Shown here: positions 12,377 to 39,700 of the stretch, piece after piece
Layout: each line of letters opens with the position of its first letter
Position numbering within the stretch: position 1 is the first letter of the stretch
NCBI GenBank assembly: GCA_965178125.1
Contig: OZ237768.1
Span: 310,001-374,000, forward strand
Direction: 5' to 3'
DNA length: 64,000 nt
Origin: Bilabrum cf. latius
Lineage: Eukaryota
The notes under the pieces: generated by a model
What the model saw: only the letters and a program-made list of their open reading frames with translations
What the model was told of the DNA's origin: nothing
Database searches by the model: none
Translations under genes and position numbers: made by a program

Positions 12377-14794
12377 ATGGGCTGCGGGCTTTCGAAGATG
12401 CCGGAAGGCATTGCTACAGACGAAGTAAGTACACTAAAGACATCGAACGACTGCAATTGTACTCATTTATACTAAGCACTCGGCAAACACCTTGAGGGCG
12501 GGTTGAAACCATCGCAGCCAACGAAGGAACGCCAGTCTTCTTCTCGGGGCTAGAAGCATTCTTCCGCGCCACAACCGGACGTGCAAGCACCCAACCACCA
12601 GGAAGATCACAAACAAAATGATGGGTAGGGAATAGTTTCCCGGGGTAATATCATAGAAAAAGCGGACTAGGAAGCGTTTTCTGGCTATTTCGAGCCGGAC
12701 GGAACGAAGGTGGTGAGATCGAGTGCATTCGCAGACGGAACTACCGTGTGGATCCTTGCCGCAATCAAGTCGAGGCGTCAGAGGGTATTCTTTTCATGTG
12801 GTGTCAGCGAGGCAAGGGCTGTACAATCATGGTTTCAAGGTCTCATCTCGCTCTTGATCGACAAGGCAAACGTCGTTCCCGGTGTTCTGGGATCTGCTGA
12901 AAAGATTAGGTGCGTGCCAGCATGCGACAGCTCTTTCATGGCCCACGTGCCAAGTAAATTAAGCGTATGGACCGAGCGCGTGGCTGCCCGGGAAGCGCCA
13001 CGAAACGTCCAACTTTCCGTGACGGCAATGCTTCACAGCCTCCGGCTTCGTGGAGATCCATGCCAGAATCAGTACCGGGTAATCAGCGGAGTTGATATGA
13101 CAGGAGATGCTAGTGGCAGCGTGAGTGCCGCATCAGCAGGTTCCGTGAACATGTTTTCCTTCGGGGTGGGGAGCAGGATGAGCGAGCGAGGGAAGTCGGA
13201 TGGCGCTGTACTTGGCTTGAAGTCATGCTTCCGCAAGGCTTCGGATCGCAGTGAGCTAACCCCAAATGAGGTTATTTCTCTGAATTTGCGGGTACAGACA
13301 AGTGGCCGGGGCAAGTGGGCAACACGCACTTCAAAGGCTGCACGTAGTGCCCCGCAGCGAGCAGCATCGCAGCAATACTACACCACTGGCGTAGATGATC
13401 GGTCCGCAGGAAACAAATACCGAATCAAAGGAAGTGTGCCATTGGACCATGATAATGTTGGCGCGGAGGAAGGAGGCATGGGCGAGCCGGCCATTGCGGT
13501 CGCAAGCAAGAGCTATCCGGATCCGCAGAGAACCAAGTGGGTCGCAGCTAAACAAGCGTCCAAAGCTTCATCGTCTCGCAAAGAGACTGGTACCACTAGC
13601 CGCCATGCTGCTGCGGTTGCAGCTGCAGCTGCGCTTGCCGAAAACGGTAGCGGCGAGAGGAGCATCGATTCAGAGGAATCACGAGCGCACCGCACCAACA
13701 CTGACAGCAGCAGAAGCAGGAGCAAGCCAGCACTTACGCAGTCTCTCTCCTTCGAGCAGTTCTCTTCCTCTGGTGGCTCATTCGTGTTCGGCAGGAGGCA
13801 GGTCCTCGGGGCAGTGCAAGGCGGGTCGAGCCTGTACTCCACCAAGGGCCCGGGAGCAGTGGGCAGCGGTAGCGACCCCGGGCGGTCCATGGTACCAGTG
13901 CCAACCATCCAGGTGGCCCGGGCCTTCCTCGGCATGCCGGAGCAGGCTACGAGCAAGGATGACGATGGTGCATCCAGTGCCGCAGAGGACCGATCGGGCG
14001 TGCAGGTGGAAGAAATCAGGCCCGATGGGGGAGTCTTGTTGGCTGGAGGGAACAGCGCCACAGTAGTGCTGACCAGGCCCTCTCGCCGGTCCGTCTCGTG
14101 TCCTGCTGTGGACGGCCCTGCACACCCTGCTGCTGCCTCCACTGGCACGGCACACAGCCCGCACATGCCCACTGCCACCGGCCCTGTCTCCAAGTGGGGG
14201 GCCAAGAGAACAATGGCAAGGGGATACCCCGCAGCCAGCTCGGCCGGTGCGCCTCGTGCTGGCCCTGCTCCTCCCACTCGGTCAGCATTCACGTCCAACC
14301 AGGTCTTCCCCGCCCCGCCCAGCCCACCGCCGACCCATGATGTTGCTGCTGATGCAGCCTCGGGGCCCGGCACTGGTACAACTCCCGGAGACAAGTACAT
14401 TCCCACGTCCCTGCACTCGGTGCCCATGGCCCGGCTGGTGCCCTCTGATGTGTACCTGCCTGCCACCAAGCAGCACCAGACCATCCCCGAGCACGGGCCT
14501 GCGCCTGACACTACCACTGGCAGCGGGTCTCCAGACCACATCGCCAGGATGGCCAGCTCGGGTGCGTCCTCCGTGGGGTCCTCCATGATCGGCGTGCAGT
14601 AGGAGGAGAGGATGACGCTGACTCCACTGTTCCTGCTGACGATGCAGGGGCGCGGGTGGGACGGGCTGATGCGGCAGGCTCATTTTGTGCGGATGGTGAG
14701 GAACATGATCGGGGTGCACCACCTGGCCTTCGTGAAGCTCGAAGATGCGGGGGAACTTGCATGTGTGGACGCGCTGGGATCAGCTTCCATCTGA
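12377..14794 (+). CDS. Tandem family copy A: uncharacterised protein with N-terminal MGCxxS (putative myristoylation/palmitoylation); probable intron 12425-12517
   Basis: MGCGLSKMPEGIATDE|GTAAGT...ATCGCAG. In-frame TAGs near 12551, 12626, 12668 and at 14600; TGA at 14792-14794. Homologous to copies B and C. Confidence 0.7.
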
Positions 14795-15146
14795 TTGTTC
14801 GATTTGATTCGATTCGTGTCGTTTTGAAACATTCTTGCGTTGTGGGACACCATCGTACTGCTATCGACATAGTGTCGCCAGGGTAGGCGAGTTCGAGCAG
14901 CCGGTTCCAACCGCGGCGATAGCGTCTGCCGGTCGCAAGCTGGTCCACCACGAACGCCCGCGACTCTGGTTCGCATTTCCACGGCACTCTGCAAAGTGCC
15001 CCATTACGAACAGGGCGATCCTCGCGACACCTGGATTTCGAGAAGTGTACCATTCACTCACAAAGGTTGCTTCCCCGACAGAAGCACTGACACAGCGCCT
15101 CATTCGCAGACTTCGGCAGCAACGCGGGCAAGTTCCGTCGGAAGTC

Positions 15147-17503
15147 ATGGGATGCGTTTGGTCTCAGCCCGGAGATTTGGCTGCTAATCAAGTGAGATGC
15201 GATGATGACATCATACTGACTGCGAGCTTGTGTCGCTCTCTCGTATCCTTGTTTACCGTCAAAATGGCCATGACAAGATGCCCTGCCAAATTCCGCAGCC
15301 AGCCGTGCCCCGACCGCTGCACGGCCACGAGGAGCCCTCTGATCTGCATTCGTCCGGCAGCCTGAAGTCATTACATGGTGATGATGCTATCGGCTTGCAT
15401 CTTGGTCAAGGTGCGGGCCCAATACTTCAACAGACCGGCTCGTCCGGCTCAGCGATGTCGCTGAGGCCGGCAGGGCAGAGCGCCATGGCCAACGACACAG
15501 TCGTTTGGATCATCGCTGCAGTGAAAAGCAAGAGACAAAGAGCTTTCTTCTCTTGCGGGATCAACGAAGCAAAGGCCGTGCAGATGTGGTTTCAGAACCT
15601 GCACAGCGCCTTTGCAAACGTCGTCGCACGTAATGCCGACGCGATCGGTTCAGCAGACAAGCTTCGATGCGTGGCAGCATGCGAAAGCTCGTTCATGGCA
15701 CAAGTACCGAAGAAACTAAGGGTGTGGACCAAGCAAGCACCAGCGGCTCAGGAGCCGACACGAATCCCCCGCCATATCGTGACCTCGATGCTGCACAGCC
15801 TTCGTTTGCCTGGCGATCCGAGCCAGAATCGATACAAAGTGATCGGTGGAGTTGATATGACACGGGACTTTAGTGGCAGCATGAGTGCAGCTTCGGTTGG
15901 ATCTGTGGGCGTGTTTTCAGGTGGTTTGGGCAGCCGGTCGGGCACTCGTGGCAAGTCGGATGGTTCTGTGCTCGGCCTGAAGTCTTGTTTCCGGAAGCCA
16001 TCAGACCGCAATCAATTCTTGGTGAATGGATCTTTGTCACTGGATCTGCGGCTGTAGTAGAGGGGCATCGGCGGGAAGAGGGCTGGAAGCATAACTGGGA
16101 CCAGAGCGGCAAAGCGAGCAGCGTCGCAGCCATTCCACGCTACAACAGCAGGCCGGTGGTCGCACAGGCTGCGCCTGGACGATGACGATACAAGCAGCGA
16201 GTCTGGCGACGAAGGCGGCCCGGATGGCATCTCCAGGGTGCGCGGCGTCCCTCCCGCCCCTGAGGCTCCAGCCACGGTGGGACACGGAGACATGGACCGC
16301 TCAGCAGGTGACGACGATGCAGCGAGCAACAACGCCAGCGGTCCCGGGACCAAGCCAGGCGCCGATGATGGCAGAGAACACCGTGGAGACAGCGAGCTCG
16401 ACTCTGGTGCAGAGGACCAGCCCCAGCCCTCGCCGAGCAGCAGCAGCACCTACGACTCCCTGACCAAGACAGGGTCCGTCGGGATGAGCAGCGGCAGCGG
16501 AAGCTCACCAAGGGGGCCCGGCATGTTCAACCGTCAGATGGTGCTGCGGGCAGTGCAGGGAGAAGCCAGCATGAGCTCTGTGGCTCGGAGCGCCAGCGTG
16601 TACATGACCACACCCCCCGTGATCGAGGTGGCTGCGACTTTCCTAGGCATCCAGCCGCATGGGAGCGGTGGGGGGTGGAAGGGGACACACGGTGCGCGGG
16701 TCATGAAGGGGATCACCCACGGCAAGCAGTCCCAGCCCACCGCAGATTCATGTGCAGGTTCAGGTGCAGGTGTGTCTGTGGGAAGGCCCTCTTGCCGGAC
16801 CGTCTCGTGTCCTGCAGTGGACGGGACTGCACACCCTGCTGCTGCCTCCACCGGTACGGCACACAGCCCGCACATGCCCACTGCCACCGGCCCTGTCTCC
16901 AAGTGGGGGGCCAAGAGAACAATGGCAAGGGGATACCCCGCAGCCAGCTCGGCCGGTGCGCCTCGTGCTGCCCCTGCTCCTCCCACCAGGTCAGCATCCA
17001 CGTCCAACCAGGTCTTCCCCGCCCCGCCCAGCCCACCGCCGACCCATGATGTTGCTGCTGATGCAGCCTCGGGGCCCGGCACTGGCACAACTCCCGGAGA
17101 CAAGTACATTCCCACGTCCCTGCACTCGGTGCCCATGGCCCGGCTGGTGCCCTCTGATGTGTACCTGCCTGCCACCAAGCAGCACCAGACCATCCCCGAG
17201 CACGGGCCTGCGCCTGACACTACCACTGGCAGCGAGTCTCCAGACCACATCGCCAGGATGGCCAGCTCGGGTGCGTCCTCCGTGGGGTCCTCCATGATCG
17301 GCGTGCAGTAGGAGGAGAGGATGACGCTGACTCCACTGTTCCTGCTGACGATGCAGGGGCGCGGGTGGGACGGGCTGATGCGGCAGGCTCATTTTGTGCG
17401 GATGGTGAGGAACATGATCGGGGTGCACCACCTGGCCTTCGTGAAGCTCGAAGATGCGGGGGGACTTGCATGTGTGGACGCGCTGGGATCAGCTTCCATC
17501 TGA
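15147..17503 (+). CDS. Tandem family copy B (apparent C/A recombinant); intron 15192-15298
   Basis: MGCVWSQPGDLAANQ|GTGAG...CCGCAG. TAG TAG at 16055-16060 and TAG at 17309 join ORFs 15230-16057, 16238-17311 and 17321-17503; TGA stop. Confidence 0.75.
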
Positions 17504-17882
17504 TTGTTCGATTCGATTCGATTCGTGTCGTTAGATGCGTGTGGATGAGTTTTGAAATATTCTGGCGTTGTGGAAGACTAGCAAGTCTATCGTATTGCTA
17601 TCGGCATAATGCCGCCAGGGTAGGCGAGTTCGAGCAGCCGGTTCCAACCGCGACGAAAGCGTCTGCCGGTCGCAAGCTGGTCCACCACGAACGCCGCGAT
17701 TCTGGTTCGCATTTCCACGGCGCTCTGCAAAGTGCCCCATTACGAACAGGGCGATCCTCGCGACACCTGGATTTCGAGAAGTGTACCATTCACTCACAAA
17801 GGTTGCTTCCCCGACAGAAGCACTGACACAGCGCCTCATTCGCAGACTTCGGCAGCAACGCGGGCAAGTTCCGTCGGAAGTC

Positions 17883-20203
17883 ATGGGATGCGTTTGGTCT
17901 CAGCCCGGAGATTAGCCTCCTAATCAAGTGAGATGCGATGATGACATCGTACTGACTGCGAGCTTGTGTCGCTCTCTCGTATCCTTGTTTACCGTCAAAA
18001 TGGCCATGACAAGATGCCCTGCCAAATTCCGCAGCCAGCCGTGCCCCGACTGCCGCACGGCCACGAGGAGCCCTCTGATCTGCATTCGTCCGGCAGCCTG
18101 AAGTCATTACATGGTGATGATGCTATCGGCTTGCATCTTGGTCAAGGTGCGGGCCCAATACTTCAACAGACCGGCTCGTCCGGCTCAGCGATGTCGCTGA
18201 GGCCGGCAGGGCAGAGCGCCATGGCCAACGACACAGTCGTTTGGATCATCGCTGCAGTGAAAAGCAAGAGACAAAGAGCTTTCTTCTCTTGCGGGATCAA
18301 CGAAGCAAAGGCCGTGCAGATGTGGTTTCAGAACCTGCACAGCGCCTTTGCAAACGTCGTCGCACGTAATGCCGACGCGATCGGTTCAGCAGACAAGCTT
18401 CGATGCGTGGCAGCATGCGAAAGCTCGTTCATGGCACAAGTACCGAAGAAACTAAGGGTGTGGACCAAGCAAGCACCAGCGGCTCAGGAGCCGACACGAA
18501 TCCCCCGCCATATCGTGACCTCGATGCTGCACAGCCTTCGTTTGCCTGGCGATCCGAGCCAGAATCGATACAAAGTGATCGGTGGAGTTGATATGACACG
18601 GGACTTTAGTGGCAGCATGAGTGCAGCTTCGGTTGGATCTGTGGGCGTGTTTTCAGGTGGTTTGGGCAGCCGGTCGGGCACTCGTGGCAAGTCGGATGGC
18701 TCTGTGCTCGGCCTGAAGTCTTGTTTCCGGAAGCCATCAGACCGCAATCAATTCTTGGTGAATGGATCTTTGTCACTGGATCTGCGGCTGTAGTAGAGGG
18801 GCATCGGCGGGAAGAGGGCTGGAAGCACAACTGGGGCCAGAGCGGCAAAGCGAGCAGCGTCGCAGCCATTCCACGCTACAACAGCAGGCCGGTGGTCGCA
18901 CAGGCTGCGCCTGGACGATGACGATACAAGCAGCGAGTCTGGCGACGAAGGCGGCCCGGATGGCATCTCCAGGGTGCGCGGCGTCCCTCCCGCCCCTGAG
19001 GCTCCAGCCACGTTGGGACACGGAGACATGGACCGCTCAGCAGGTGACGACGATGCAGCGAGCAACAACGCCAGCGGTCCCGGGACCAAGCCAGGCGCCG
19101 ATGATGGCAGAGAACACCGTGGAGACAGCGAGCTCGACTCTGGTGCAGAGGACCAGCCCCAGCCCTCGCCGAGCAGCAGCAGCACCTACGACTCCCTGAC
19201 CAAGACAGGGTCCGTCGGGATGAGCAGCGGCAGCGGAAGCTCACCAAGGGGGCCCGGCATGTTCAACCGTCAGATGGTGCTGCGGGCAGTGCAGGGAGAA
19301 GCCAGCATGAGCTCTGTGGCTCGGAGCGCCAGCGTGTACATGACCACACCCCCCGTGATCGAGGTGGCTGCGACTTTCCTAGGCATCCAGCCGCATGGGA
19401 GCGGTGGGGGGTGGAAGGGGACACACGGTGCGCGGGTCATGAAGGGGATCACCCACGGCAAGCAGTCCCAGCCCACCGCAGATTCATGTGCAGGTTCAGG
19501 TGCAGGTGTGTCTGTGGGAAGGCCCTCTCGCCGGACCGTCTCGTGTCCTGCAGTGGACGGGACTGCACACCCTGGTGCTGCCTCCACCGGTACGGCACAC
19601 AGCCCGCACATGCCCCCTGCCACCGGCCCTGTCTCCAAGTGGGGGGCCAAGAGAACAATGGCAAGGGGATACCCCGCAGCCAGCTCGGCCGGTGCGCCTC
19701 GTGCTGGCATTGCCCCTCCCACCCGGTCAGCATCCACGTCCAACCAGGTCTTCCCCGCCCCGCCCAGCCCACCGCCGACCCATGATGTTGCTGCTGCTGC
19801 AGCCTCGGGACCCGGCACTGATACAACCCCCGGTGGCAAGTACATGCCCACGTCCCTGCACTCGGTGCCCATGGCCCGGCTGGTGCCCTCTGATGTGTAC
19901 CTGCCTGCCACCAAGCAGCACCAGACCATCCCCGAGCACGGGCCTGCGCCTGACACTGCCACTGGCAGCGGGTCTCCAGACCACATCGCCAGGATGGCCA
20001 GCTCGGGTGCGTCCTCCGTGGGGTCCTCCATGATCGGCGTGCAGCAGGAGGAGAGGATGACGCTGACTCCACTGTTCCTGCTGACGATGCAGGGGCGCGG
20101 GTGGGACGGGCTGATGCGGCAGGCGCATTTTGTGCGGATGGTGAGGAACATGATCGGGGTGCACCACCTGGCCTTCGTGAAGCTGGAGGGGGCGAGGGGG
20201 TGA
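17883..20203 (+). CDS. Tandem family copy C; intron 17928-18034; C-terminus altered by a 65-bp repeat
   Basis: Near-identical to B over the 5' part (offset 2736 bp). TAGs at 17913, 18791, 18794; CAG at 20045 where A and B have TAG; TGA at 20201-20203. Confidence 0.75.
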
Positions 20204-20444
20204 TGGTGAGGAACATGATCGGGGTGCACCACCTGGCCTTCGTGAAGCTGGAGGGGGCGCGGGGGTGATGGTGAGGAACATGATCGGGGTGCACCACCTG
20301 GCCTTCGTGAAGCTGGAGGGGGCGAGGGGGTGATGGTGAGGAACATGATCGGGGTGCACCACCTGGCCTTCGTGAAGCTGGAGGGGGCGCGGGGGTGATG
20401 GTGAGGAACATGATCGGGGTGCACCACCTGGCCTTCGTGAAGCT
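20138..20444 (+). repeat. 65-bp tandem repeat, ~4.7 copies, derived from the 3' end of copy C
   Basis: Units start at 20138, 20203, 20268, 20333 and 20398 (ATGGTGAGGAACATGATCGGGGTGCACC...). One site alternates A/C between successive units. Confidence 0.95.
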
Positions 20445-20537: not shown

Positions 20538-21438
20538 TCAAGAGCAGCACCCGCCGCTTGGCTTCGTGCCATCATCGTCGTCATCATCCACCTCTACAAA
20601 ATCTTCACCCCTCTCGCCTTCCCTCCCCACGTTATTTATGATCAGTTTAGCCAACTCTCGAAACGCCTCGGTGACTCCCTCGCCCGTCTTGGCCGATGTC
20701 TCCGCCACGACAAGCCCACCCTCCCGTTTCTCCAGGGCCTTTTTGACCTGCTCCACCAGGACTTTTCGGCTGTCGTCCGCCTCCTTCCTGCTCCGCGCGT
20801 CCATTCGGTCCAGGATGTCTGTCTTGTTTCCGATTAGCACGATCTGAGCGTCTTCGTCAGCCAAGCTGTGTATCGTTCTAACGTACTCATCGAGCACTTT
20901 CTGCAGCGTGGACATATCGGTGACGTCGTACACGAGGATGATTCCTTTCCTGCCGCGGATGTGGCTCTTTGTGATAGAAGCAAATCGCTCCTAGCCCGCA
21001 GTGTCGAACACGTTCAACCGGATATTGCAGCCATCCACCTGCGAGCCGAAACACTAGGCAGCATTGGCCGCGACGAACAGATCGATGCCATTCGCTTCGC
21101 AAGACGCAGCTTTGCAGCCAACATAGATGCTCTCACTTCGTCTGTAATACTAACTAGGTCCACACCGATCGTGGCACGATACCCTGGCCCGAAACGCTCT
21201 CCAGCGTATCCATGAACTAGTGTTGTCTTACCAACACCAGCGTCTCCGAGCTGCAACGGTGCGCATGAGTTCGATGAGCAGGATAAGAAATACGTGTAGC
21301 GCGCTCTTCGACCAACGATGAACAAGAAATGAATGATACAGTGCGCCAGCGAGTAGACCTTACTGTGCACGCCGTAGTCGACAGGTCGTCCTCAATGTCC
21401 CCTATTCCTCCATAAGCGCCTGAATGGGCACCTGCCAT
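20538..21438 (-). CDS. Rab-family small GTPase; exons 21438-21364 (tentative), 21250-21137, 21038-20538
   Basis: GDAGVGKT, ATIGVD, FDTAG[TAG]ERF, VYDVT, GNKTD, ETSAKTG and C-terminal CCS prenylation motif; TGA stop. GT..AG introns 21251-21363 and 21039-21136. Confidence 0.92.
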
Positions 21439-21630
21439 ACAATTGTTACGCAGCGAGTGACTTTGTCTGGCCGCAGATGTATTGGCTTAGTGTTTGACCA
21501 GATCCATCCACGAATGTTGCGTTCTGCCAATTCTTTGATATCATCTTCATATTTGGATGTTTGGTTACAACCGCTTTCGAATCGGTTGGACGCGAGCAAC
21601 TTCTCGGGACACCCAACACGTTTCTGGCTG

Positions 21631-24600
21631 ATGTCAACCCAGGATGAAGTGACCTAGCGATTGAAACGCATCCAGAAAAGGAAGCATGAGATCGCTGTGC
21701 TTGAGTCTCTGCCTCCTGCTAGGTATCAGGCATACGTGAAGCTTCAACAAAGGCAGGCCGCTGCTTCAATTTAGCGGGCCTTTCGGCGCAAGCAGGATGG
21801 CGATTATAGTGAAATCGACTTGCCACGTTTGTCTCCTTCAGACAGTCACGGCGGTGTAATCACGTCTTTGGAAGGAGAATCAAAACATGTAGAGACGAAA
21901 AGCCCAGACCGAGGCGACGATGTCGGCGATCGGCCGCAGGACAAGTTGGCACCGGAGACCGCCGCTGAACGCGATGTAGATGATGCATTTGCTGCACCGG
22001 ATGGAGAAGCTTCATTGAGCGCGGACGTCGCCGTTGATCCAGGGGCTCTGTCTCACAAGCAGCACGAGTACCTGCAGTGGGCCGAAGATGAGCACCGCGT
22101 CCGCGGCAGGCCGCGCTAGCTGCGCCATTGGAACGGATACGCGGACGTAGACGCCGACACGAGCGGTCGCGAAGCAAGCGGCCGGTGGATGGAGCGAGCA
22201 CGCCGGATTGCTCATCTCAGGGCAAGGTCAGAAGCCGCCCTGCAGTCCCTCCACGGCCTCAAACCGGAACATCGCGCCCCCGATGCCGCTCGATCAGCCG
22301 AGAATGCTAGCCCCGGATCAGGTGCTCGACTCAGCGGTCCCACGGCGCGCCACCGCCGCTCGCTTCTGGCCCGCAGGACGGCTGCACTCAGGGCCCGGCT
22401 CATGAAGCCACCGACTCTGCACGATGTGTGCCCGCCCACGACTGCGGAAGGTGCGGCGGCGGCGGAACAACAGCGAATCGGAGGCACGGGGCATGGGTCT
22501 GATTCTGGCTCCGAGTCGACCTTATCGGGGCTTGGTAGTGGCGAGTCTGCCAACAAGGGCCAGGGCCAGAGCAAGGGCAAGGGCGAGGGCAAGGGCGAGG
22601 GCGAGGGTAGCGGCCAAGACGGCGGAGAAGACGACGGGGAAAGGCAAGGGGGGAGAAACGGAGAGGGTGCAGACGAGGAGGGTGACGTTGCTGGAGACGG
22701 CAAGGCAGACGGAAGGCAGGTGCGGCGCCGCGCTTTGGACCGCAGGGCAGATATGTTCCGCAAGGCCGCCGAGGCTGCGCGGCGCCTCACACCATCAGAC
22801 CCTCGCATCCGGCGAGCAGGGGAGAGGGCACACCGGGACATGCTGCGGGCTCTGCTGCCGCCCGCCGACGCGGCACGGGAGTGGTGGGCCGTGCATGCGG
22901 GCGGGCAGAGCACGGATATCAGGCAGGAGCAGGAGCTGCCACTGCAGGTGCTAGAGGTAGACGCGACCGCTGCTGCTGCATCCAAGGGCAGCGCCGGCGG
23001 GGAAGGAGGAGAACCAGGCGATGGTACTAGCGATGAGAGCAAGGGTGCAGCGCACGATGGTGCAGCCACAGCTGCCGCTCCCGACGCCCCGCTGCCTCCA
23101 TCAGACCCCAACTCCCGCCGGTACACGGAGAAGCACCCCTCCAGCGGCTGGTGGCTCGCATACTCCGCAGGCCCGTTCGCGGGAGCGCCCCGCCTCGGGC
23201 CACTGAGCCCCGCAGGGGTACTCCCAGCTGCCCTCAGGCGAGGCACCGCCAGGGAACACAAATCCACCCATGGAGACAGGCGCGACAGGGGTCGCGCGTT
23301 GAGCCAGTATCCGAGGTCAAGACAGCCCGTGGCTGCGGGAGGGGGGGGCGGCCCAGAGGTTCCCCTGCCGGTGGTGGCCGGTGCGATGGACCGGCTGGGG
23401 ATCGTGGACCCGTGGGACGGGGACCGGATCCTTGCGCTGCAGAATGCGCGGCGCCGGGCGGACAACGGAACCGGAGAGGGTGACGGGTCGGCAGGCGGCA
23501 CGCTCCGTGTGGGCGTCAACGGGCAGGCGCTGAGCCTTGAGGGCATGGAAGAGGCCAGGAGGGCGGCGGCAGCGGCAGCCAGGGAACAAGACGCGGACAG
23601 TGGAGAGGTGGACCCCGATGTGACCAATGACGGTGTGACGAGTGCGATCGCGGGTGGGCAGGAGGCCGTCGGGGACGGAGAGTCGGCCGAAGCCGCAATC
23701 CAGGGAACAGCGCAGGCACTGCTGGGTTCCGCAGGCGTGTCCGCGGCAGAGGCAGCGGCCGCTGCCGGCCTGTCCGAGCTCAACGACCCGCTCTCCGCCG
23801 CCCTGCGAGCCGCTCCCTCGCTCGAGGCGCCCGTGGTGCGGCCCTCTTCGTCCTCGTCGGCCCCCGAAGGATCCGGGTAGCAGGCCGTGGGTGGTTCCGC
23901 TGGCGCGGCGCCAGGGACGGTGAGCCGGTACGAGGGCGGGTTTGACCGGTACGGCGCCCCCGTCGCCCGCAGGTTGCCATCCTTCGCCGTGCCCAGCGGC
24001 AGCGCGCAGGAGAGGGCAACGCTGGTGAGGGTGGGGCTGAGGAGAGACACAGGGAGGGTGCTTCGGGCGGCCCGGCGGGCGCAGGAGGAGATACTCAGGG
24101 AGCAAAGGCGTCAGGGTGGACAAAGTGGTAGCGATGGGGAGGGCGGCAATGACGACCAGAGAGACCACGATCAGGTTGACAGCTGGGAGGCGGGCGGCGG
24201 GGCGCAAGCAGACAGCATGGTCAGGGACTCGCTGGATGGCAACCGGCTTGCGGAACCGGATGAATCGCGCGGCGCCGGTGGGGTTGCCATCCCTGTTAGC
24301 ACCGTGGGACGATTAGGAGGTTCCGCAGGCGCCGCGCATCCAGGCAATTTCTTCGTGCTGACCAGGGAACAGGTCCTCGAGATGGCGCAGGCCGTGGGCG
24401 GCGGCAGTGGTGACAGCGACAAGCGGGGAGGAGAGAATAGCGGTGCTGGGGACAGGGAGAGGGGGACACGAGGTGTTGGTAGAGGGCGAGGAAATGGGGA
24501 GGCATTTTACGGTGGCAATGGCGGTGTGAGCGGCGCTGGGTTTCAGCCGGGGCGCTCTGCCAGGTCATAGAGGAGCGGCCGCTCCATCCCCTTCGATCTG

Positions 24601-25731
24601 AGCGCGAGCCCAGTGACCACGGTGGCGGAGGATGATGGGAGGCACAGGCAGGGCTACGGGCAGGGGCGGGGACGCGGGGACCAGCACAGGGGGGCTGGGG
24701 GCAGCAGCGGCCTTCGAATTGCTGGCTCCGGCACCAGCGGTGGCGGTGGCGGTGACAGCAGGATAACCGGAGAGTCGCCCTCGTATGGACGGGGGTCGGC
24801 CCGCCGCATGGGATCGGATCAGCATGTATCGCAACCGTATGACGCCTTGGAATCGTCGCACGCATCCGCCACGTCGGGCCGCTCCGCCGCCAGTGCCAGC
24901 GATGTGGGCCAGCGCGTGAAGGAGTCCTTCGGCCCTGCCGCCACCCCCTCCAGAGTTAGGACGCCTAGGGGCAGGCCGGTGGAGGAGGGCGCCAGGGAGA
25001 GGATGGAGCACCCCGGAAGGTCGCTCGCAGCGCAGCTGGCTGCCGACACGGTCACACCCGCGAGGCGGCGCGGGAACTGGGATGATGGCGCTGGTGGACG
25101 GACCGTGCAGGGGACCGGCGCTGCACGCGATGGGGGATTGGGAGACGCGACTGGGTTTGGGCCACGGGACAGCGCGGGCAGCGGCATGGGCGCGAGCTTC
25201 GAGCGAGACGCAGAGGCCCTGGTCCCTCGATTGGGTGAGGGCAAGGGCGAGGGCCGGGGTGCGCATTCTGGGACCAATGCAGGTGCAGATGCAGATACAG
25301 GGGGCGGGGGCAATGGTGCCCGGGCTAGCGGCATCCTTGGACCAAGAGATGCTGGGGGTAGGGACGGCGGGGGCAGGGAGGATCCCTTGAGAAGGTCCGT
25401 TCGGTTTGAGGGGGAGGGAAAGGGAGAAGAGGAAGAGGAAGGGGAGTCAGGCATGGGCGTGTATAGGGGGGGTGCGTCTTCTTCGTCTTCTTCCTCTATG
25501 CGCAGGCCCACTTTGAGCACATCTGAGGCCAGGGTGCGCGATCGTGAGCTGTATCTGCACAATTCGGCAGGATAGGATGGTGGCGGTGGCGATGAACACG
25601 GGCGTGGTAGAGAGAACCTGATGGACGCTACCGGCAGCAGCCTGGACTTCAGTCGGACCAGCGAGGTGGAGGCTGGTCGTGGCCATGCAAGTGCCGCTGG
25701 ACAAAGCAGCGTGGCCCGGAGGTACGGGTGA
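21631..25731 (+). CDS. IQ-motif protein with long Gly/Ala/Ser-rich tail (~1366 aa); N-terminus loosely reminiscent of the IQCB1/NPHP5 C-terminal region
   Basis: Single frame with six TAGs (21655, 21772, 22117, 23878, 24568, 25573). AAASI[TAG]RAFRRK is an IQ motif. Ends TGA TAA CGA TAA at 25729. IQCB1 similarity is from memory and unverified. Confidence 0.75.
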
Positions 25732-29400: not shown

Positions 29401-32400
29401 GCCGCAATCACCAGATCGCATGCGACCAGCACAGCGGATAGCGCAGGGCCCATCACATCGCGTATCGAGGTGCATGCGATACGGCCCAGGTCGGACAGAC
29501 ACAGCCTGCACAGTGTCGACCGGGCCACGGACTCGTCGAGCCAATACACCAGAAGTGCCATCCCTGCACCCCTGTCACTACCATCACCTGCATCACCCGC
29601 CAATCTGCCTCTATGATCCGACACCAGCTCGAAAGCAGTGTATCCTGCAACCCTCATTCCGAAGCAGCAGCTCAAAGCAGCGACCAGCACACCCGCACAC
29701 AGCAACGATTGGGCAATGATAGCTTCAATAGAAAGACACCTGTGGAAGGGATCGTCCCCAGTGGCGAACAAATGCGACGCAACTGCATCTGCGTTACCGC
29801 TGTATTCTGTACTATGGGCGCGATGCCCCCACCCGAACGGGCACTGCTGCTCCAACCGAACGGAGACACCAGCATGCGAGGCCAGGGGCAGGTAGTTCCC
29901 CACGAGCGTGGCCTCAGCTCTAGTGCTCCCGGCGTACAGGTTTCTCAGCAGCGATCGTGCCATGGTTCTGGTCGACAAAGAGGCTGGCAAGGGAGCAGAT
30001 GCAAGACCGTCATTGCCCTGCGGTTGAAGCTCATCGCGCTGAAATGATATGCGCAACCTGACAGACGGCGGTGTCTGTGAAACAGACAGCCCCCTGCTAG
30101 ATTCCGCTGATCCAGACTTTTCATTGCGACCTAATGCCACTGCGACTCCTGCAGCCTTCAGCACGCAGTCATGCGCCGTGTGAATCCCTGCCTGCACTCC
30201 GAGGCGGGAGCGCAGTCGAGACCGGAGCGAGGAAAGCGGGAGGGGCCATCCATGCCGGTGCGAGCACGACACATTCATGCGATGCAACTGGGTGCGCAAG
30301 ACATCGTCAGTATCTGGCCTGGGCTCGAGAGCTGCGAGACTGCCGTCTCTTGGCTCGCCCACCTGCTCCCATGCCAACCCGATCCAGCTGTGGTCCAGGG
30401 ATCGCTCGTGGCTTGCAGAGGACTCACGCTCCGTATTCAATGCGACAAAAGTGGACCACGCTTCGTCTGCGTCCTTCGCACACGCCAGGTCCCTCTCATC
30501 CAGCGCTGCAGCACACAGGGCCTGCAGGTGCACCAGCGGAGGAGCAACGCCTCTGCCTGCACCCAGGATCCTGCACTGTTTCCGAGCGTGGCTTATGTTT
30601 GCTTCCATGATTCCGTTCTGCCCATCTACGCCCACAGCTGGTCCGACCTCCTGCGCATCAATCTCGCCTGCAAGCACCACAGTGCTGGCTCGAGCTACCG
30701 CGGCCACACCGAGCTCATCGGGCAGCAATCCTACAGGACTAGCACGAACGTCTGAAGCTGATGACCCGCCTGCGCCTTTTGCTGGCAGCATACGCACGTA
30801 GATCAGCTCAGAATATCGATCGGAGAGTGGACCGGATCCAGGCATGCCCAGGGCAGACAATACCTCCTGCTTGATGTCAACCTCAAGCAGCTGGGCAAGG
30901 TCTTCGTTCGTGTACCACTGCAGGCTCACCCCGGGTATGGACACATCCAGGTGCAGTGACTCAAGGCCCGATATGAACCCCACTCCACCCCTGGATGTTC
31001 CTCCAGCGAGCCACGTGTGACTTTGCCTGTGCAGCGATGCATCCACCGCGCGGCATTGCAAGGTATCCCCGGTCCACACGCGTTTGATAGCCTGTACGTC
31101 GGAGCCTTGCTGGCTCGGCTCCAACCACAACCTCACAGGGGCGTTCCAGAACCTGCTCCAATACCTGGTGGTGGAGGCGTTCACGCCACTGCGGTCATCT
31201 ACGGTGGACCGCGGGTCATTGCACACAGCCAAGCACTGAGGGGCCAAAGACAACGGGGCGAATGCACTGGTCTCGCTGCAGATCCACCTACCCCGTCGGA
31301 CCCGAGGCAGCCCGTTTGGCACCACATTACCGTGGAGGTCCTTGACAGCGAGATCCAGCCTCAGCCTGTGCGGCATGTACTGCCTCTAGAATGCCGCGTG
31401 CTGCACAAGAGCAGCAGGCATGGAGGGTGGCACCATTGTGGCGAGGTCCGCAGCATTCGTGTCGGCCGTCGATTGGAACCCACCCATGGCAAGGCCGATA
31501 GACGAGTTTGCATATATCACGTTGCCGCTGTACATGACATCCAATCCTACCAATACTACTGCCTCGAAAGTCGCATTACTGCCCAACTGACCGTTAGTCA
31601 TACCAGACCTACCAGCTGTCTTGTTGAAGCCATCCCACTTGTAGGGCATTGCAATATTGTTATGGATGTATGGGCCATAAAACGCACACTTCAAGAACGC
31701 ACCATCACCAGCGGACGTGTAGCCAGGTCCAACGAGGCTTGAATTCGAGTCGATCGAGGTGATCTGCATCATGGTCTGATTGCACCTCGAGGTGTCGGTC
31801 ACTCTGATCGCATCCGATGTGAAGGATGATGCCGTCACCATGTAATGCCACCGGTTCATGATGGAGTTGCTGGCGAACAGTGCATTGGGGTCCACACAGG
31901 TGCAGCCGCGCATGGTGTGGAAGCACACAACCTGGTCGCCTGAATCCTGCGGGGCAGGGCACGGGCTGGTCGCAAACTCGCTAGGAGGATGTCCGGGTGC
32001 CACCGGAGCGACAAGACGATCCAGTGACCGAGTACCTTTTTGCCTCGCTGCAGATCCATCGGTATTGCGCCCGCTCATAGCGACGACCGCTTCGTACGAA
32101 ATAGTCTGCCGCAGTTGCTGCGTCATCGGATCTGCAGTGGAGTTCACCTCGGTCACATGTGCACCGTTATTGCGTCCGAGCCACACGATTGAGCCTCCCT
32201 CATGTTCTGTCAAACGGCCCAATAGTGGCATTTCTGCCTCATCTAGGTGACCCGCGGCGCTAGGAATGCGATCAGCTTCAGGGTTGACATCAAGATCAAG
32301 AGTCGCATCCCACAGCCCGGTGGCACTACCTTGCGCGCTGCCGGCCCCCAAGGGCGGCGTTGAGTTGCTCTGGAAGCAGTCCGTCACGCATTGCATGCTG

Positions 32401-33432
32401 GCAGGACCCATCGATGCACCCGAAACACCCCTCTATCGCGCAGCCACCATGCCCCACGTCAGGTACCACACCCGCGGCTGGAACCGTTTCTCCGCCGGGT
32501 GGAACTTGTCGTACTGAAACGTAGGCCAGGACACGTACCATATCCCCCCCTCGGGTGGCAACAGGGCCGTGGGCATGAACTTCACCTCCATAGTGAGTCC
32601 GGGCCCGCCCGTCGGTCGCTCAATCGTCACACCGTGGTGCCGACCCAGCTCACACCTGACCTGCTTCGCAAGCATGGGCCTGGGCCTCCAGTTGATCTCG
32701 ACAGGAGGAGCCATGTGCAGAGACTCTCCCGTGCTCTGGCTTGATGCCAGTCCATACTTCGCATCGGGGGCGGGCTTGCTTACACTGACATTGTCGCTGT
32801 GCCAGGCGTGCTGTCGCTGTGGTGTTGCTGCATCAATGCAGCCGGTGAAGCGGGATGGCAGCAGGCCTGGTTTGCACAGTCCAGCACCGCCACCAGAGAG
32901 CAACGATGGGATTCCTTCGTATACTGGACTAGAATGGCTGCCGGGAGTGCTTCCGCTGTACACACCCGAAGCGAGCATCGACCGAGAGGCGTCCTTCCAA
33001 CGAGGATTGCTCCGTGGCAGCTGGTAGGCGTACAGTACCTCATTGTGTCGTGCACGTGGTTTTCTAGATCCACTTCCTGTCAAAATGATCGGGTACACCG
33101 GATCTGCGAGGCGAAAAGGCAAGGCATGGAAAGTGCGCTGCGTGTCTGCTATTGGCCCGGTTTTGCTGAGGTCCACCGACAGTTTAGCTTACAGCCTTGT
33201 GGTTCGCTCCCAGCGAGGTCCTGCCCCGATACTATAATCGATTCATTCGTCACGTCCAACTATAGGGAGATATGCTCCGGGAGATTGAGCTGCAAGAAGA
33301 ACTTGAAATTGCACTAGACCAAACCGAACCACTTTTCATAATGGCGTCAGCTCAAGTATGGTGCTGTAAGGCTGCGATGCTCACACATGTACTTCGCCAA
33401 ATAAGTGAAGCGATTAGAAACGTACATATCAT
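26403..33432 (-). CDS. Large Cys-rich multi-pass membrane protein with signal peptide, left copy; exons 33432-33385, 33289-33193, 33103-26403
   Basis: MICTFLIASLIWRSTC|GTGAG start. Same-frame ORFs joined by about 8 TAGs. Hydrophobic segments such as AIIAQSLLCAGVLVAALSCCFGM and LAWSCVLLEAVLGVMVVLC. TGA at 26403-26405 could instead be part of a GTATGA donor. Confidence 0.75.
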
Positions 33433-33564: not shown

Positions 33565-33580
33565 TCTCTCTCTCTCTCTC
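33565..33580 (+). repeat. (TC)n microsatellite in the palindrome spacer
   Basis: TCTCTCTCTCTCTCTC run. Confidence 0.85.
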
Positions 33581-33753: not shown

Positions 33754-36700
33754 ATGTACGGTTACACGATTTTTGTCGCTTCACTTATTTGGCGAAGTAC
33801 ATGTGTGAGCATCGCAGCCTTATAGCACCATACTTGAGCTGACGCCATTATGAAAAGTGGTTCGGTTTGGTCCAGTGCAATTTCAGTTCTTCTTGCAGCT
33901 CGATCTCCCGGAGCATATCTCCCTATAGTTGGACGTGACGAATGAATCGATTATAGTATCGGGGCAGGACCTCGCTGGGAGCGAACCACAAGGCTGTAAG
34001 CTAAACTGTCGGTGGACCTCAGCAAAACCGGGCCAATAGCAGACACGCAGCGCACTTTCCATGCCTTGCCTTTTCGCCTCGCAGATCCGGTGTACCCGAT
34101 CATTTTGACAGGAAGTGGATCTAGAAAACCACGTGCACGACACAATGAGGTACTGTACGCCTACCAGCTGCCACGGAGCAATCCTCGTTGGAAGGACGCC
34201 TCTCGGTCGATGCTCGCTTCGGGTGTGTACAGCGGAAGCACTCCCGGCAGCCATTCTAGTCCAGTATACGAAGGAATCCCATCGTTGCTCTCTGGTGGCG
34301 GTGCTGGACTGTGCAAACCAGGCCTGCTGCCATCGCGCTTCACCGGCTGCATTGATGCAGCAACACCACAGCGACAGCACGCCTGGCACAGCGACAATGT
34401 CAGTGTAAGCAAGCCCGCCCCCGATGCGAAGTATGGACTGGCATCAAGCTAGAGCACGGGAGAGTCTCTGCACATGGCTCCTCCTGTCGAGATCAACTGG
34501 AGGCCCAGGCCCATGCTTGCGAAGCAGGTCAGGTGTGAGCTGGGTCGGCACCACGGTGTGACGATTGAGCGACCGACGGGCGGGCCCGGACTCACTATGG
34601 AGGTGAAGTTCATGCCCACGGCCCTGTTGCCACCCGAGGGGGGGATATGGTACGTGTCCTGGCCTACGTTTCAGTACGACAAGTTCCACCCGGCGGAGAA
34701 ACGGTTCCAGCCGCGGGTGTGGTACCTGACGTGGGGCATGGTGGCTGCGCGATAGAGGGGTGTTTCGGGTGCATCGATGGGTCCTGCCAGCATGCAATGC
34801 GTGACGGACTGCTTCCAGAGCAACTCAACGCCACCCTTGCGGGCCGGCAGCGCGCAGGAAAGAGCTGTCGCACGTTGGAATCAAGAGGATCCCACGGGTG
34901 CTCATGCTCGCTCGCCTCGATCTAGCAACAGTGCAATAACCTTTGTGGCGCTGGGGAAGTCACAACTATTATTAAACGGTACAAAAATAAACGGTGGCAT
35001 GCAGATGATGGGCGAGCAAGCTCGCACGTATCTGCCATCTCCGGTGGACCCAATGACGCAACAGATGCGGCAGACTATTTCGTACGAAGCGGTCGTCGCT
35101 ATGAGCGGGCGCAATACCGACGGATCTGAAGCGAGGCAAAAAGGTACTCGGTCACTGGATCACCTCGCAGCACAGGTGGCACCCGGACATCCTCCTAGCG
35201 AGTTTGCGACCAGCCCGTGCCCTGCCCCGCAGGATTCAGGCGACCAGGTAGTGTGCTTCCACACCATGCGCGGCTGCACCTGTGTGGACCCCAATGCACT
35301 GTTCGCCAGCAACTCTATCATGAACCGGTGGCATTACATGGTGACGGCATCATCCTTCACATCGGATGCGATCAGAGTGACCGACACCTCGAGGTGCAAC
35401 CAGACCATGATGCAGATCACCTCGATCGACTCGAATTCAAGCCTCGTTGGACCGGGCAAAACATCCGCTGGTGATGGTGCATTTTACAAATGTGCATTTT
35501 ATAGCCCATACAGCCGTGGGAGTACCGATCTACCGTTCGCGTGGGATGGCTTCAACAAGACAGCTGGTAGGTCTGGTATGACTAACGGTCAGTTGGGCAG
35601 GAATGCGACTTTCGAGGCAGTGGTTTGGGTTGGAAAAGATACCATGTACAGCGGCAACGTGATGTATGCAAACTCGTCTATCGGCCTTGCCATGGGTGGG
35701 TTCCAATCGACGGCCGACACGAATGCTGCGGACCTCGCCACAATGGTGCCACCCTCCATGCCTGCTGCTCTTGTGCAGCACGCGGCATTCTAGAGGCAGT
35801 ACATGCCGCACAGGCTGAGGCTGGATCTCGCTGTCAAGGACCTCCACGGTAATGTGGTGCCAAACGGGCTGCCTCGGGTCCGAGGGGGTAGGTGGATCTG
35901 CAGCGAGACCAGTGCATTCGCCCCGTTGTCTCTGGCCCCTCAGTGCTTGGCTGTGTGCAATGACCCGCGGTCCATTGTAGATGACCGCAGCGGCGTGAAC
36001 GCCTCCACCACCAGGTATTGGAGCAGGTTCTGGAACGCCCCTGTGAGGTTGTGGTTGGAGCCGAGCCAGCAAGGCTCCGATGTACCGGCCATCAAACGCG
36101 TGTGGACCGGGGATACCTTGCAATGCCGCGCGGTGGATGCATCGCTGCACAGGCAAAGTCACACGTGGCTCGCTGGAGGAACATCCAGGGGTGGAGTGGG
36201 GTTCATGTCGGGCCTTGAGTCACTGCACCTGGATGTGTCCATACCCGGGGTGAGCCTGCAGTGGTACACGAACGAAGACCTTGCCCAGCTGCTTGAGGTT
36301 GACATCAAGCAGGAGGTATTGTCTGCCCTGGGCATGCCTGGATCCGGTCCACTCTCCGATCGATATTCTGAGCTGATCTACGTGCGTATGATGCCTGCAG
36401 AAGGCGCAGGCGGGTCATCTACTTCAGACTTTCGTGCTAGTCCTGTAGGATTGCTGCCCGATGAGCTCGGTGTGGCCGCGGTAGCTCGAGCCAGCACTGT
36501 GGTGCTTGCAGGCGAGATTGATGCGCAGGAGATCGGACCAGCTGTGGGCGCAGATGGGCAGAACGGAATCATGGAAGCAAACATAAGCCACGCTCGGAAA
36601 CAGAGCAGGATCCTGGGTGCAGGCAGAGGCGTTGCTCCTCCGCTGGTGCATCTGCAGGCCTTGTGTGCTGCAGCGCTGGATGAGAGGGACCTGTCGTGTG

Positions 36701-39700
36701 CGAAGGACGCAGACGAAGCGTGGTCCACTTTCGTTGCTTTGAATACGGAGCGTGAGTCCTCTGCAAGCCACGAGCGATCCCTGGACCACAGCTGGATCGG
36801 GTCGGCGTGGGAGCAGGTGGGCGAGCCAAGAGACGGCAGTCTTGTAGCTATCGAGCCCAGGCCAGATACCGGCAATGACTTGCGCACCCAGTTGCATCGC
36901 ATGAATGCGTCGTGCTCGCACCGGCATGGATGGCCCCTCCCGCTCTCCTCTCTTCGGTCTCGACTGCGCTCCCGCCTTGGTGTGCAGGCAGGGATTCACA
37001 CGGCGCATGACTGCGTGCTGAAGGCTGCAGGAGTTGCAGTGGCAGTGGGTCGCAATGAAAAGTCTGGATCAGCGGAATCTAGCGGGGGGCTGTCTTCTTC
37101 ACAGACCCCGCCGTCTGTCAGGTTGCGCATATCATTTCAGCGCGATGAGCTTCAGCAGCAGGGCAAGGACGGTATTGCATCTGCTCCCTTGCCAGCCTCT
37201 TTGTCGACCAGAACCATGGCACGATCGCTGCTGGGAAACCTGTACGCCGGGAGCACTAGAGCTGAGGCCACGCTCGTGGGGAACTACCTGCCCCTGGCCT
37301 CGCATGCTGGTGTCTCCGTTCGGTTGGAGCAGCAGTGCCCGTTCGGGTGGGGGTATCGCACCCTTAGTACAGAATACAGCGGTAGCGCAGATGCAGTTGC
37401 GTCGCATTTGTTCGCCACTGGGGACGATCCCTTCCACAGGTGTCTTTCTATTGAAGCTATCATTGCTCAATCGTTGCTGTGTGCGGGTGTGCTGGTCGCT
37501 GCTTTGAGCTGCTGCTTCGGAATGAGGGTTGCAGGATACACTGCTTTCGAGCTGGTGTCGGATCAGAGGACCCGATCGGCGGACGACGCAGGTGATGGTA
37601 GTGGCAGGGGTGCAGGGATGGCACTTCTGGTGCATTGGCTCGATGAGTCGGTGGCTCGTTCGACACTGTGCAGGCTGTGTCTGTCCGACCTGGGCCGTAT
37701 CGCGTGCAGCTCGATGCGCGATGTGATGGGCCCTGCCCTATCCGCTGTGCTGGTCGCATGCGATCTGGTGGTTGCGGCATTTGCTGTGTCAACGTCCATT
37801 GGACAAGCCGACTGCAGCATCGCTGGGTGGCTGGCCTGGAGCTGCGTGCTGCTGGAGGCTGTGCTTGGTGTGATGGTGGTGCTGTGCCGGGTGCTGCCAG
37901 CCGATGTCGGGACGTTCCCAAACCGAGACGAGCCTGCGAGCAACAACGGGTGGGATCGCATGGAGGACGGAGATGAATTCATTGCAGGCGGCACCGGGAT
38001 TGAGGATGACTCTGGGCACCAGCACCTTGATCCGATCACTACGAGCAGGATTGCGGCAAAGACTCCTCGGTTTGAGCTGTCATCGTCAGCCGTTGGCCCT
38101 GCTCGCGATTCGTCCCTTGTGCACGACCTGCATGCCGCTGTTGGGGGCTCGAGCGCAACTGAGTCCGCACAGGAGGAGAGCGTGCACTCGCAGGCCGTGC
38201 GGACTGGCCATGGCAGGTCGCGTGCTGCAGGGAGGATGCAAGCGCTGCGGCGGTACCACACGATGGGTATTCTGGTGGACATGTGTCCATTCGAGCCCAT
38301 GTGCTTGCCTGCATGGTGTCTCTGCTGCAGGGGCTGCTGTCGATCGAGGCACACCACAGCCCTGGATCTTGCAGAGAGCATGCTCGATTCCGATGGGGCG
38401 AGTCTGGCCACAAGGAGCCGGCACAGTAGTAGCAGCGTGGCTACTCAGTTTCGCAGGCCCGTGGATCTGTCCGACCCGTTAGACTGCTTAGCGGCGCAGG
38501 AGCTGGGCATGTCGATCTCGATCGGGCAGGCGGGTCCGTCCCGACTGCGGGTGGGCGAGGGTCAGGAGCTGCTGAGGACGAATGCGACGTGGGGCACCGT
38601 CGCGAGTCTGTTTGCGTGCGATCCGTCAGGATATCTCGCCATGCAGGGCGGCGTGTCGCGAGGGTGCTGGCGGTCGATCTGCTGTTTCGATTGCTGCAGC
38701 GTGTGCACGGGTAGCGATGGAGCAGCTTCAGAGGGCGAAGTGGGGTGGGAAGATGACGTGGACCGGTGGTAGCAGGGCGTGTGTGCGTGCCTGTCCGAAT
38801 CGTTGCAAGGCCAGTCCACCAGTGGTCATGCATACTCGCCGAGTCAGTCAATCAGCCGTAGTGGCGGTACGAGATCTAGACCCGACCAGCGTACCGGTAG
38901 TGTCGACGAGTCCACGGATGCGGCCAGCCATGCATCGAAAAGACAATCACCGGAATCGTTCGATCAATTACACGCAAGTAGAGCCGGCAGTGCGCCAACT
39001 AGAGAACCCAGTGCACTTCGAGGATCGACTAGCACCAAAAGGAGCCACCAATAGGATCGTGCAGCAGCAGATCGAGGCTCAACTCGATCTCGGTTTCAGC
39101 TGCGCACTAGATTGGCTGGTGTGTGTGTTATTAATCATCACAGCGAATCGCACGCCAACAGCAGGCTAGGTGCGCTTTAGATGACCGGCACGAGCGAGCC
39201 GGCAAGCTCTGATGTCGGAACTCTACGAAGCGCCCAAGATACCTCAAGTGCGTCCAGTGTCGACGGAAAGGAATTCGACGTGCTTTTTGAGCCGAGTGAG
39301 GTGTTGATGGGAGGTGTGATGGTCGTGAACTAGAAGCAGCAGACCGTGCAAGCTCAGCAGCAGGTGTCGCAGCGAGATGCGGACGGAAGCCAAGCTGAAG
39401 GACGAGCTTATAGGAGCGAATCGCTGCTATATGAAGCTAGCACGGATGACGCCATGCCGTCCAAGTTCGGGCTGTATTTGGAGTCTGAGTTATAGCGAGG
39501 AGGTGGCGCACATAATCTCGAGGATTGTGGATTGGGTTCTGATGGCAGCGAGTCCGATAGTCAGCACCATGTCGAGAATGCACGGCTTGCATTGTCCGAG
39601 GACAATTTTGCCGAGCCATTTGACTATCTCAAATCAGAGCACGGTGCGGGTGAAGTCTTGGATCTGGATGAAATGCCTATCAAGCCAGGCCATGCAGCTG

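Follow-up and report, generated by a model that had tools for sequence, protein, structure and literature searches.

Reassignment of UAG, most likely to glutamine, in nuclear DNA of an apparent relative of the stramenopile Cafeteria

We analysed a stretch of 64,000 nucleotides (hereafter the window) of contig OZ237768.1 (positions 310,001 to 374,000 of the forward strand; assembly GCA_965178125.1, deposited as Bilabrum cf. latius) with respect to the meaning of the codon TAG. The window is eukaryotic nuclear DNA with GT-AG introns; its G+C content is 60% overall and varies between 54 and 70% along its length. Our analysis provides clear evidence that UAG has been reassigned to sense in this genome, while UGA, the main stop codon, and UAA still terminate translation. 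The amino acid that UAG encodes is most likely glutamine, although this is not proven.

Open reading frames and conserved genes

Under the standard stop codons the longest open reading frame (ORF) of the window comprises 993 codons and all ORFs of at least 300 codons total 14,128 codons. Reading through TAG raises the longest ORF to 2270 codons and doubles the total to 28,429, whereas reading through TAA instead of TAG yields 14,241 codons and thus almost no gain. With TAG as a sense codon 18 non-overlapping long ORFs are found, 14 of which end at TGA and four at TAA; none of them requires a TAG terminator. Thirteen ORFs with 15,539 codons make up a confident set. Every one of these contains TAG in frame, 83 times altogether (0.53% of codons), and the two other frames of the same ORFs hold 104 and 137 TAG, 35 and 49 TAA, and 272 and 336 TGA triplets. 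In frame, both TAA and TGA are absent. These zeros follow from the ORF definition, yet the ORFs span whole conserved proteins, and a calculation from base composition (60% G+C) shows that chance would not be expected to produce frames of 1400 to 2270 codons lacking both TGA and TAA.

If TAA were read in the same way as TAG, the CAA to CAG ratio of 160:450 would predict about 30 in-frame TAA codons, and none was seen. Two of the confident genes end at TAA, and in both the 3' sequence looks non-coding and soon runs into further stops. Since TAA is absent in frame and terminates these two genes, only TAG has been reassigned. A code without any dedicated stop codon, of the Condylostoma type, was also considered and is rejected by the in-frame absence of TAA and TGA and by the failure of TAA read-through to lengthen the ORFs.

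Eukaryotic genes in the window encode the scaffold subunit A of PP2A (PP2A-A), a fusion of cyclophilin with the splicing factor SYF2 and a weakly Kelch-like protein; the remaining ORFs are mostly long, of low complexity and without Pfam match. Three genes could be aligned with relatives from other organisms:

47211 to 49880, plus strand: PP2A scaffold subunit A gene; exons 47211-47403, 47772-47928 and 48112-49880, GT-AG introns, TGA stop
51165 to 53099, plus strand: cyclophilin and SYF2 fusion; in-frame TAG at 51468 (cyclophilin) and at 51702, 52224 and 52947 (SYF2 domain), TGA stop
43698 to 46442, plus strand: conserved gene; six in-frame TAG (residues 33, 40, 347, 396, 424 and 450), TGA stop

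The spliced coding sequence of PP2A-A is full length, its starting methionine directly following an upstream TGA. It carries a single in-frame TAG at 48429-48431, after which some 480 codons align with homologues from many eukaryotes. Contigs from three sequencing runs of two studies (X5, X6 and X7) join the exons of this gene across GT..AG and read 48112-49721 or beyond with no other letter. That these runs are RNA is a guess, and their contigs were counted as transcript only if they bridge exons at GT..AG; contigs of the DNA run X1 cross the PP2A-A introns unspliced. Because the spliced contigs keep TAG 48429, the codon cannot be put down to misassembly and is not removed by editing, and across 15.5 kb the X5 to X7 contigs list no T-to-C difference at any place.

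A second gene of this kind is found in L001, a metagenome contig of 4964 bp. The shared PP2A-A exon is 83% identical to that of the window at the amino acid level and 77% at the nucleotide level, and the L001 gene (2722-4719) has an in-frame TAG of its own (L001:4003), at a different place than the window gene. Behind it the frame continues for 237 further codons to a TGA at the same end as in the window. Two independent gene calls on L001 (P0004 and P0124) both stop exactly at this TAG, as standard-code gene callers do. A further ORF of L001 (1-1662), with three TAG codons and a TGA stop, is the orthologue of window gene 21424-25731; TAG stands opposite Y, S, R or gaps in an alignment of the two that is too poor to be used. 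The in-frame TAG of L001's own indicates that the reassignment is common to at least two species. Gene order differs between the two, with the orthologue of 21424-25731 lying directly upstream of PP2A-A in L001 and 22 kb away from it in the window.

That TAG is still a stop, with the ORFs being pseudogenes or non-coding or with UAG removed by U-to-C editing, is scarcely credible. The length of the ORFs, the third-position bias of substitutions between paralogues (see below) and conservation across species, with PP2A-A conserved beyond its TAG in two species, rule out pseudogenes and non-coding frames; editing is ruled out by the spliced contigs of all three runs.

One point weighs against a uniform sense reading: every TAG counts as sense in the ORF definition, and a TAG also stopping some genes would therefore be invisible. 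UAG might thus be ambiguous, sense within genes and still a stop near some 3' ends. Nothing speaks directly for such a scenario, and a gene truly ending at TAG would merely look longer under our ORF definition. We regard it as very unlikely: the PP2A-A gene of the window and that of L001 end at a TGA in the same position, the frame past TAG 14600 and 17309 of two tandem paralogues stays open and conserved and a third copy has CAG there, and TGA and TAA do not occur in frame, which sets the window apart from known ambiguous codes.

Several observations concern the conserved genes and their surroundings. The combination of PF00160 and PF08231 in the cyclophilin-SYF2 gene also occurs in proteins whose source is named as Pylaiella littoralis and Lotharella globosa, in several unnamed proteins and in one further protein with an identifier suggesting Undaria. 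Just upstream of this gene, at 50818-50920, contigs of three RNA-like runs leave out 101 bases bounded by CT..AC, which corresponds to a GT-AG intron of a minus-strand transcript whose gene lies outside the long-ORF set. An intron (43549-43696) lies upstream of conserved gene 43698-46442. Within that gene about 80 bp (45801-45888) show 20 to 50 times the contig depth of the surroundings in all four runs and match many short contigs at 90-95% identity, and the corresponding segment of residues ~694-765 matches about 100 short proteins in a representative library. It resembles either a high-copy element or a lineage-specific domain family.

The other ORFs outside the paralogue families are:

2699 to 5713, minus strand: coiled-coil-like ORF of 1005 codons; five in-frame TAG (one at 4796), TAA stop, followed by non-coding-looking sequence
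7383 to 11894, plus strand: ORF of 1504 codons; seven in-frame TAG, TGA stop
21424 to 25731, plus strand: low-complexity ORF of 1436 codons; six in-frame TAG, C-terminus orthologous to ORF 1-1662 of L001
54021 to 58943, plus strand: ORF of 1641 codons with weak Kelch matches; 16 in-frame TAG, TGA stop
59411 to 62377, minus strand: ORF of 989 codons; 11 in-frame TAG, TAA stop, with TGA and more stops within 11 codons

A search for shorter relatives of the 1640-residue Kelch-like protein gave none at E <= 1e-5 and was probably swamped by low-complexity words. The ORF at 59411-62377 contains a perfect in-frame tandem repeat of 78 bp at 60616-60851, equal to three units of 26 residues, and G-D-H-G-E-P repeats close to its C-terminus. 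A further ORF, at 62180-64000, runs off the end of the window; it contains a Y-A-D-D motif as in reverse transcriptases and three in-frame TAG, and has no Pfam match at E <= 0.01.

Paralogue families and the partners of TAG

Two groups of paralogues, a tandem array of three copies and an inverted pair, allow TAG codons to be compared with their counterparts in closely related copies:

12476 to 14794, plus strand: tandem copy 1; in-frame TAG at 12551, 12626, 12668 and 14600, CAG at 13295; open only if TAG is sense
15209 to 17503, plus strand: tandem copy 2; in-frame TAG at 16055, 16058 and 17309, TGA stop
17945 to 20203, plus strand: tandem copy 3; TAG at 18791 and 18794, CAG at 20045, the site of TAG in copies 1 and 2
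26403 to 33188, minus strand: left arm of the inverted pair, 2262 codons; seven in-frame TAG including 28959, 32433, 31386, 27867 and 26520; CAG at 32736 and 28407
34000 to 40809, plus strand: right arm of the inverted pair, 2270 codons; ten in-frame TAG; TAG 34450 and 38770 opposite CAG, TCG 38218 opposite TAG 28959

Tandem copies 2 and 3 are 97% identical, and behind CAG 20045 copy 3 continues in frame for another 52 codons until its TGA. Just after copy 3 (20137-20444) lies a tandem array with a period of 65 bp and copies that are 98.8-100% identical. The inverted duplication (26393-33413 and 33776-40819) measures 7 kb per arm with a spacer of about 360 bp and holds two divergently oriented genes of about 2260 codons. 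Its arms are 93-99% identical except for the diverged stretches 27360-28226 and 32132-32332, and substitutions between them fall on codon positions 1/2/3 in numbers of 49/43/98, a clear third-position bias. The encoded proteins have predicted membrane-like segments and no Pfam match.

A preceding sequence-only reading of the window had proposed that paralogues swap TAG and CAG like synonymous codons. The codons it gave at its 12 named coordinates are all present, and, apart from 17913, the other 11 fall in frame within long ORFs. The same partners emerged from codon alignments and from a window-wide search that matched the 12 nt flanking each triplet on either side and tolerated up to two mismatches. 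TAG stands opposite TAG in six pairs (14600/17309, 16055/18791, 16058/18794, 32433/34753, 31386/35791 and 26520/40690). Three independent TAG/CAG events, all of them proposed before, were recovered by both approaches: TAG 14600 and 17309 against CAG 20045, TAG 34450 against CAG 32736, and TAG 38770 against CAG 28407. TAG 16055 aligns with CAG 13295 as suggested (and so does TAG 18791), but in a more diverged context, and the repeat around 4796 on the minus strand does read GGG CAG GGG TAG GGG CAG in frame.

The counter-examples fared differently. TAG 17913, which had been set against TTG, belongs to the non-coding spacer that separates the TGA of copy 2 from the ORF beginning at 17945. It falls within no ORF, is out of frame with the one at 17945 and so has no bearing on the question. 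The GAG and CGG triplets near 27640-27735 are real, but the copies align poorly there and the partnership is unreliable; all partners within the diverged stretch 27360-28226 (GTG, GAA, GAG, CAC, CGG and CGA) depend on the alignment and were set aside. The pairing of TAG 28959 with TCG, by contrast, exists in identical context and is weighed in the next section.

Exchange rates were determined from 2857 paralogue codon columns with at least 70% identity in 30 flanking columns:

CAG/TAG, first-position C/T: 3/86, 3.5%
Synonymous leucine codons, first-position C/T: 4/155, 2.6%
Non-synonymous first-position C/T, all classes: 4/849, 0.47%
Synonymous third-position C/T transitions: 43/1373, 3.1%
Synonymous third-position A/G transitions: 27/1177, 2.3%
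Non-synonymous transitions at positions 1 and 2, all: 49/4952, 1.0%
Conservative-type replacements among non-synonymous transitions at positions 1 and 2: 26/2720, 1.0%

CAG/TAG thus has the highest rate among all exchange classes. It differs from non-synonymous first-position C/T exchange (Fisher p = 0.020) and not from that between synonymous leucine codons (p = 0.70). Among the partners of CAG, TAG is as frequent as CAA (three each), next to CCG (three), CAT (one) and CGA (one). The paralogue comparison asked for by the sequence-only reading therefore comes out, at the scale of the window, with CAG/TAG exchanging at the synonymous rate and above non-synonymous transitions. Of the idea that TAG and CAG behave as synonymous codons, the sense meaning and the synonymous-rate exchange hold up, while the identity of the residue as glutamine rests in this comparison on three events. 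The continued use of TAA and TGA as stops was not part of the sequence-only reading.

Which amino acid UAG encodes

Apart from the paralogues, two further tests bear on the identity of the residue. In the first, the six residues flanking each codon were profiled per amino acid in the non-redundant ORFs, and 69 TAG codons were scored. Their log-likelihood for glutamine versus glutamate is +7.1; controls of 69 sites gave a mean of +4.2 (standard deviation 6.8) for true glutamine, held out, and of -9.4 (standard deviation 7.2) for true glutamate. The observed score was reached by 0.3% of 400 glutamate samples, by none of 400 serine samples, by 0% of glycine and by 0.7% of alanine samples. Also, the fraction of glutamate among the neighbours is 0.041 at TAG and 0.081 at glutamate codons. 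A classifier for all 20 residues built on the same neighbours is too weak to name the residue: proline, glutamine, valine and leucine fall within 2.2 log units, and true glutamine samples rank 5.4 on average, so only the calibrated pairwise tests were used. A comparison of TAG density with amino acid content in 50 blocks of sequence showed no signal (rho -0.05 for glutamine, +0.09 for glutamate).

In the second test PP2A-A, the cyclophilin-SYF2 gene and gene 43698-46442 were aligned with their relatives, which left eight of 11 TAG sites usable. In the same alignments, controls of eight sites gave a mean glutamine-minus-glutamate score of +3.73 (standard deviation 3.73) for true glutamine and -8.49 (standard deviation 3.15) for true glutamate.

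The three tests disagree in part, and several observations count against glutamine or limit its support. Summed mean BLOSUM62 scores at the eight homologue sites are 9.94 for glutamate, 5.86 for glutamine and 4.25 for lysine, and the resulting glutamine-minus-glutamate value of -4.08 falls between the two controls and nearer to glutamate. The closest relatives, at 77-89% identity, have E, E, Q, R and A opposite TAG. In the neighbour test the observed score was reached by 4% of arginine, 5.8% of leucine, 6.8% of lysine, 28% of proline and 58% of tyrosine samples. Among the paralogues there is one TAG/TCG pair in identical context, 28959 against 38218. The exchange test comprises three events only, in weakly constrained genes; at the non-synonymous rate, three or more events would have a Poisson probability of about 0.06, and the support over generic non-synonymous change is roughly five-fold. 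The genes evolve fast, one pair (pair A) showing 87 synonymous and 84 non-synonymous codon differences.

A rival reading is that UAG is sense throughout the genome but encodes glutamate, in which case the TAG/CAG differences would be conservative replacements between glutamate and glutamine brought about by the commonest type of mutation. Besides the homologue columns, in which glutamate scores highest, the TAG site of PP2A-A shows E in four of five homologues (AEEEE), Cafeteria-clade proteins included; residue 450 of gene 43698-46442 faces E in five of ten homologues, among them P0268, a relative with 79% identity; a TAG of L001 aligns with GAG in the window; and one TAG lies within the acidic tail D-E-D-TAG-E-D-K. 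However, the TAG sites are variable positions at which glutamate is common anyway, and the homologues are not mutually independent. The neighbour profile of the 69 TAG codons is unlike that of glutamate, as the rarity of glutamate samples reaching its score shows, and CAG/TAG exchange at 3.5% exceeds the 1.0% of non-synonymous transitions. Not a single GAG/TAG pair occurs in the reliable paralogue columns, though almost none would be expected. We consider glutamate unlikely.

Less probable still is that UAG encodes another residue such as leucine, serine, lysine or tyrosine. TAG faces TCG once in identical context and once in a poor alignment, tyrosine and proline are compatible with the neighbour test, with leucine, lysine and arginine only marginally disfavoured by it, and lysine ranks third in the homologue columns. 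Serine, however, is excluded by the neighbours (none of 400 samples), leucine, tyrosine and serine score below glutamate, glutamine and lysine in the homologue columns, and TAG/TTG, TAG/AAG, TAG/TAC and TAG/TAT are all missing from the reliable paralogue columns, as against three TAG/CAG events. Glutamine is favoured because the exchange and neighbour tests together outweigh the homologue columns and because the precedent of UAG-only reassignment points the same way, four of the cases listed in PMC11687900 being glutamine.

The host, a possible mechanism and known codes

The best named match of its PP2A-A is that of Cafeteria roenbergensis, at 52% identity. In a maximum-likelihood tree of this single gene (26 rows) the window and its metagenome relative (L001/P0124) form a pair with support 100/100, which is sister to Cafeteria plus P0005 and P0007 with support 100/99. 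Judged by this gene, the host is a heterotrophic stramenopile, with the bicosoecid Cafeteria as its nearest named relative; a single gene gives a placement and not a name. A scan of genome contigs with PP2A-A found no relative. In-frame TAG is absent from PP2A-A in the Cafeteria clade, and in a Cafeteria-like contig (L003) reading through TAG lengthens the longest ORF only from 818 to 830 codons. Cafeteria itself presumably uses the standard code. Searches for RNA genes were negative, with no Rfam match in the window at the gathering threshold and no tRNA in scans of the window, L001 and L003.

A scenario in keeping with these data would be the following. UAG would be read as an amino acid throughout the genome, most likely as glutamine, both here and in at least one related species. 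A glutamine tRNA with the anticodon CUA, or a near-cognate glutamine tRNA, would decode it, as suggested by other lineages with UAG-to-glutamine codes, and the release factor eRF1, whose gene is not in the window, would have lost recognition of UAG and kept that of UAA and UGA, by analogy with other reassigned lineages. Once UAG was free, neutral C-to-T transitions in CAG could create new TAG codons, from which paralogues would come to differ by TAG and CAG; the same process would explain the repeat with alternating CAG and TAG at 4796. On the glutamine reading TAG makes up 12% of all glutamine codons.

Literature searches covered open-access papers and bioRxiv, so that subscription papers or very recent work may have escaped them. 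They turned up no nuclear code variant published for bicosoecids, Bigyra, Opalozoa, labyrinthulomycetes or other stramenopiles, and of the papers listed as mentioning Bigyra, Opalozoa, Placididea, Labyrinthulomycetes or MAST-3 none also refers to a nuclear genetic code. The runs that contain the window sequence date from 2025, so a description may be in preparation. There is an even chance, in our estimation, that the case described here is the first nuclear code change in stramenopiles, in the sister clade of Cafeteria, which comprises two species or more, with UAG alone reassigned (probably to glutamine) and with UAA and UGA as stops.

Each independent case of UAG-only reassignment is a test of how eRF1 separates UAG from UAA and of how a suppressor tRNA becomes fixed. 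If our reading is true, this one adds a further independent uncoupling of UAA and UAG, in a genome that is rich in G+C, poor in introns and already covered by DNA and RNA data. Comparison with its closest named kin, Cafeteria, which has no in-frame TAG in PP2A-A, would be a clean way to date the change and to find its molecular basis. Our results also bear on annotation: standard-code gene callers fragment the proteins of this clade, as in P0004 and P0124, and annotation, orthology assignment and metagenome binning will be wrong until the code is corrected.

NCBI table 6 describes the reading of UAR as glutamine, found in many ciliates, in dasycladalean and cladophoralean green algae and in diplomonads, and table 15 describes the form restricted to UAG. 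For green algae the UAR code is documented in PMC2984419. UAG-only reassignment is known from a handful of eukaryotic lineages according to sections of PMC11687900, which give glutamine for Iotanema spirale (Fornicata), Protocruzia tuzeti and two lineages of phyllopharyngean ciliates, leucine for the rhizarian exLh and serine for Scotinosphaera; one ciliate is listed there with UAA as lysine and UAG as glutamate.

The window resembles the UAR codes in that a stop has apparently been captured by glutamine and new codons would arise from CAG or CAA by C-to-T change; unlike in those codes TAA is not sense here, with none in frame as opposed to 35 and 49 off frame. With exLh, Scotinosphaera and the ciliate reading UAG as glutamate it shares a reassignment of UAG that is independent of UAA. 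In contrast to Scotinosphaera and exLh, serine is excluded and leucine marginally disfavoured by the neighbours here, and glutamate is the main rival. Pyrrolysine decoding is a poor likeness, since TAG, present in each of the 13 confident ORFs and making up 0.53% of their codons, is at variance with gene-specific recoding. Cafeteria roenbergensis is similar in its high G+C content and few introns, whereas its clade differs in having PP2A-A without in-frame TAG. The closest likeness is to Iotanema, Protocruzia and the phyllopharyngean ciliates, in which UAG is sense (probably glutamine here as well), UAA stays a stop and the coupling of UAA and UAG is broken. The differences are the host, a stramenopile near Cafeteria with 60% G+C, and the glutamine assignment, which is not proven here. 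The change in the window is of the same type as that of Iotanema and some ciliates, and it occurs in a new major lineage.

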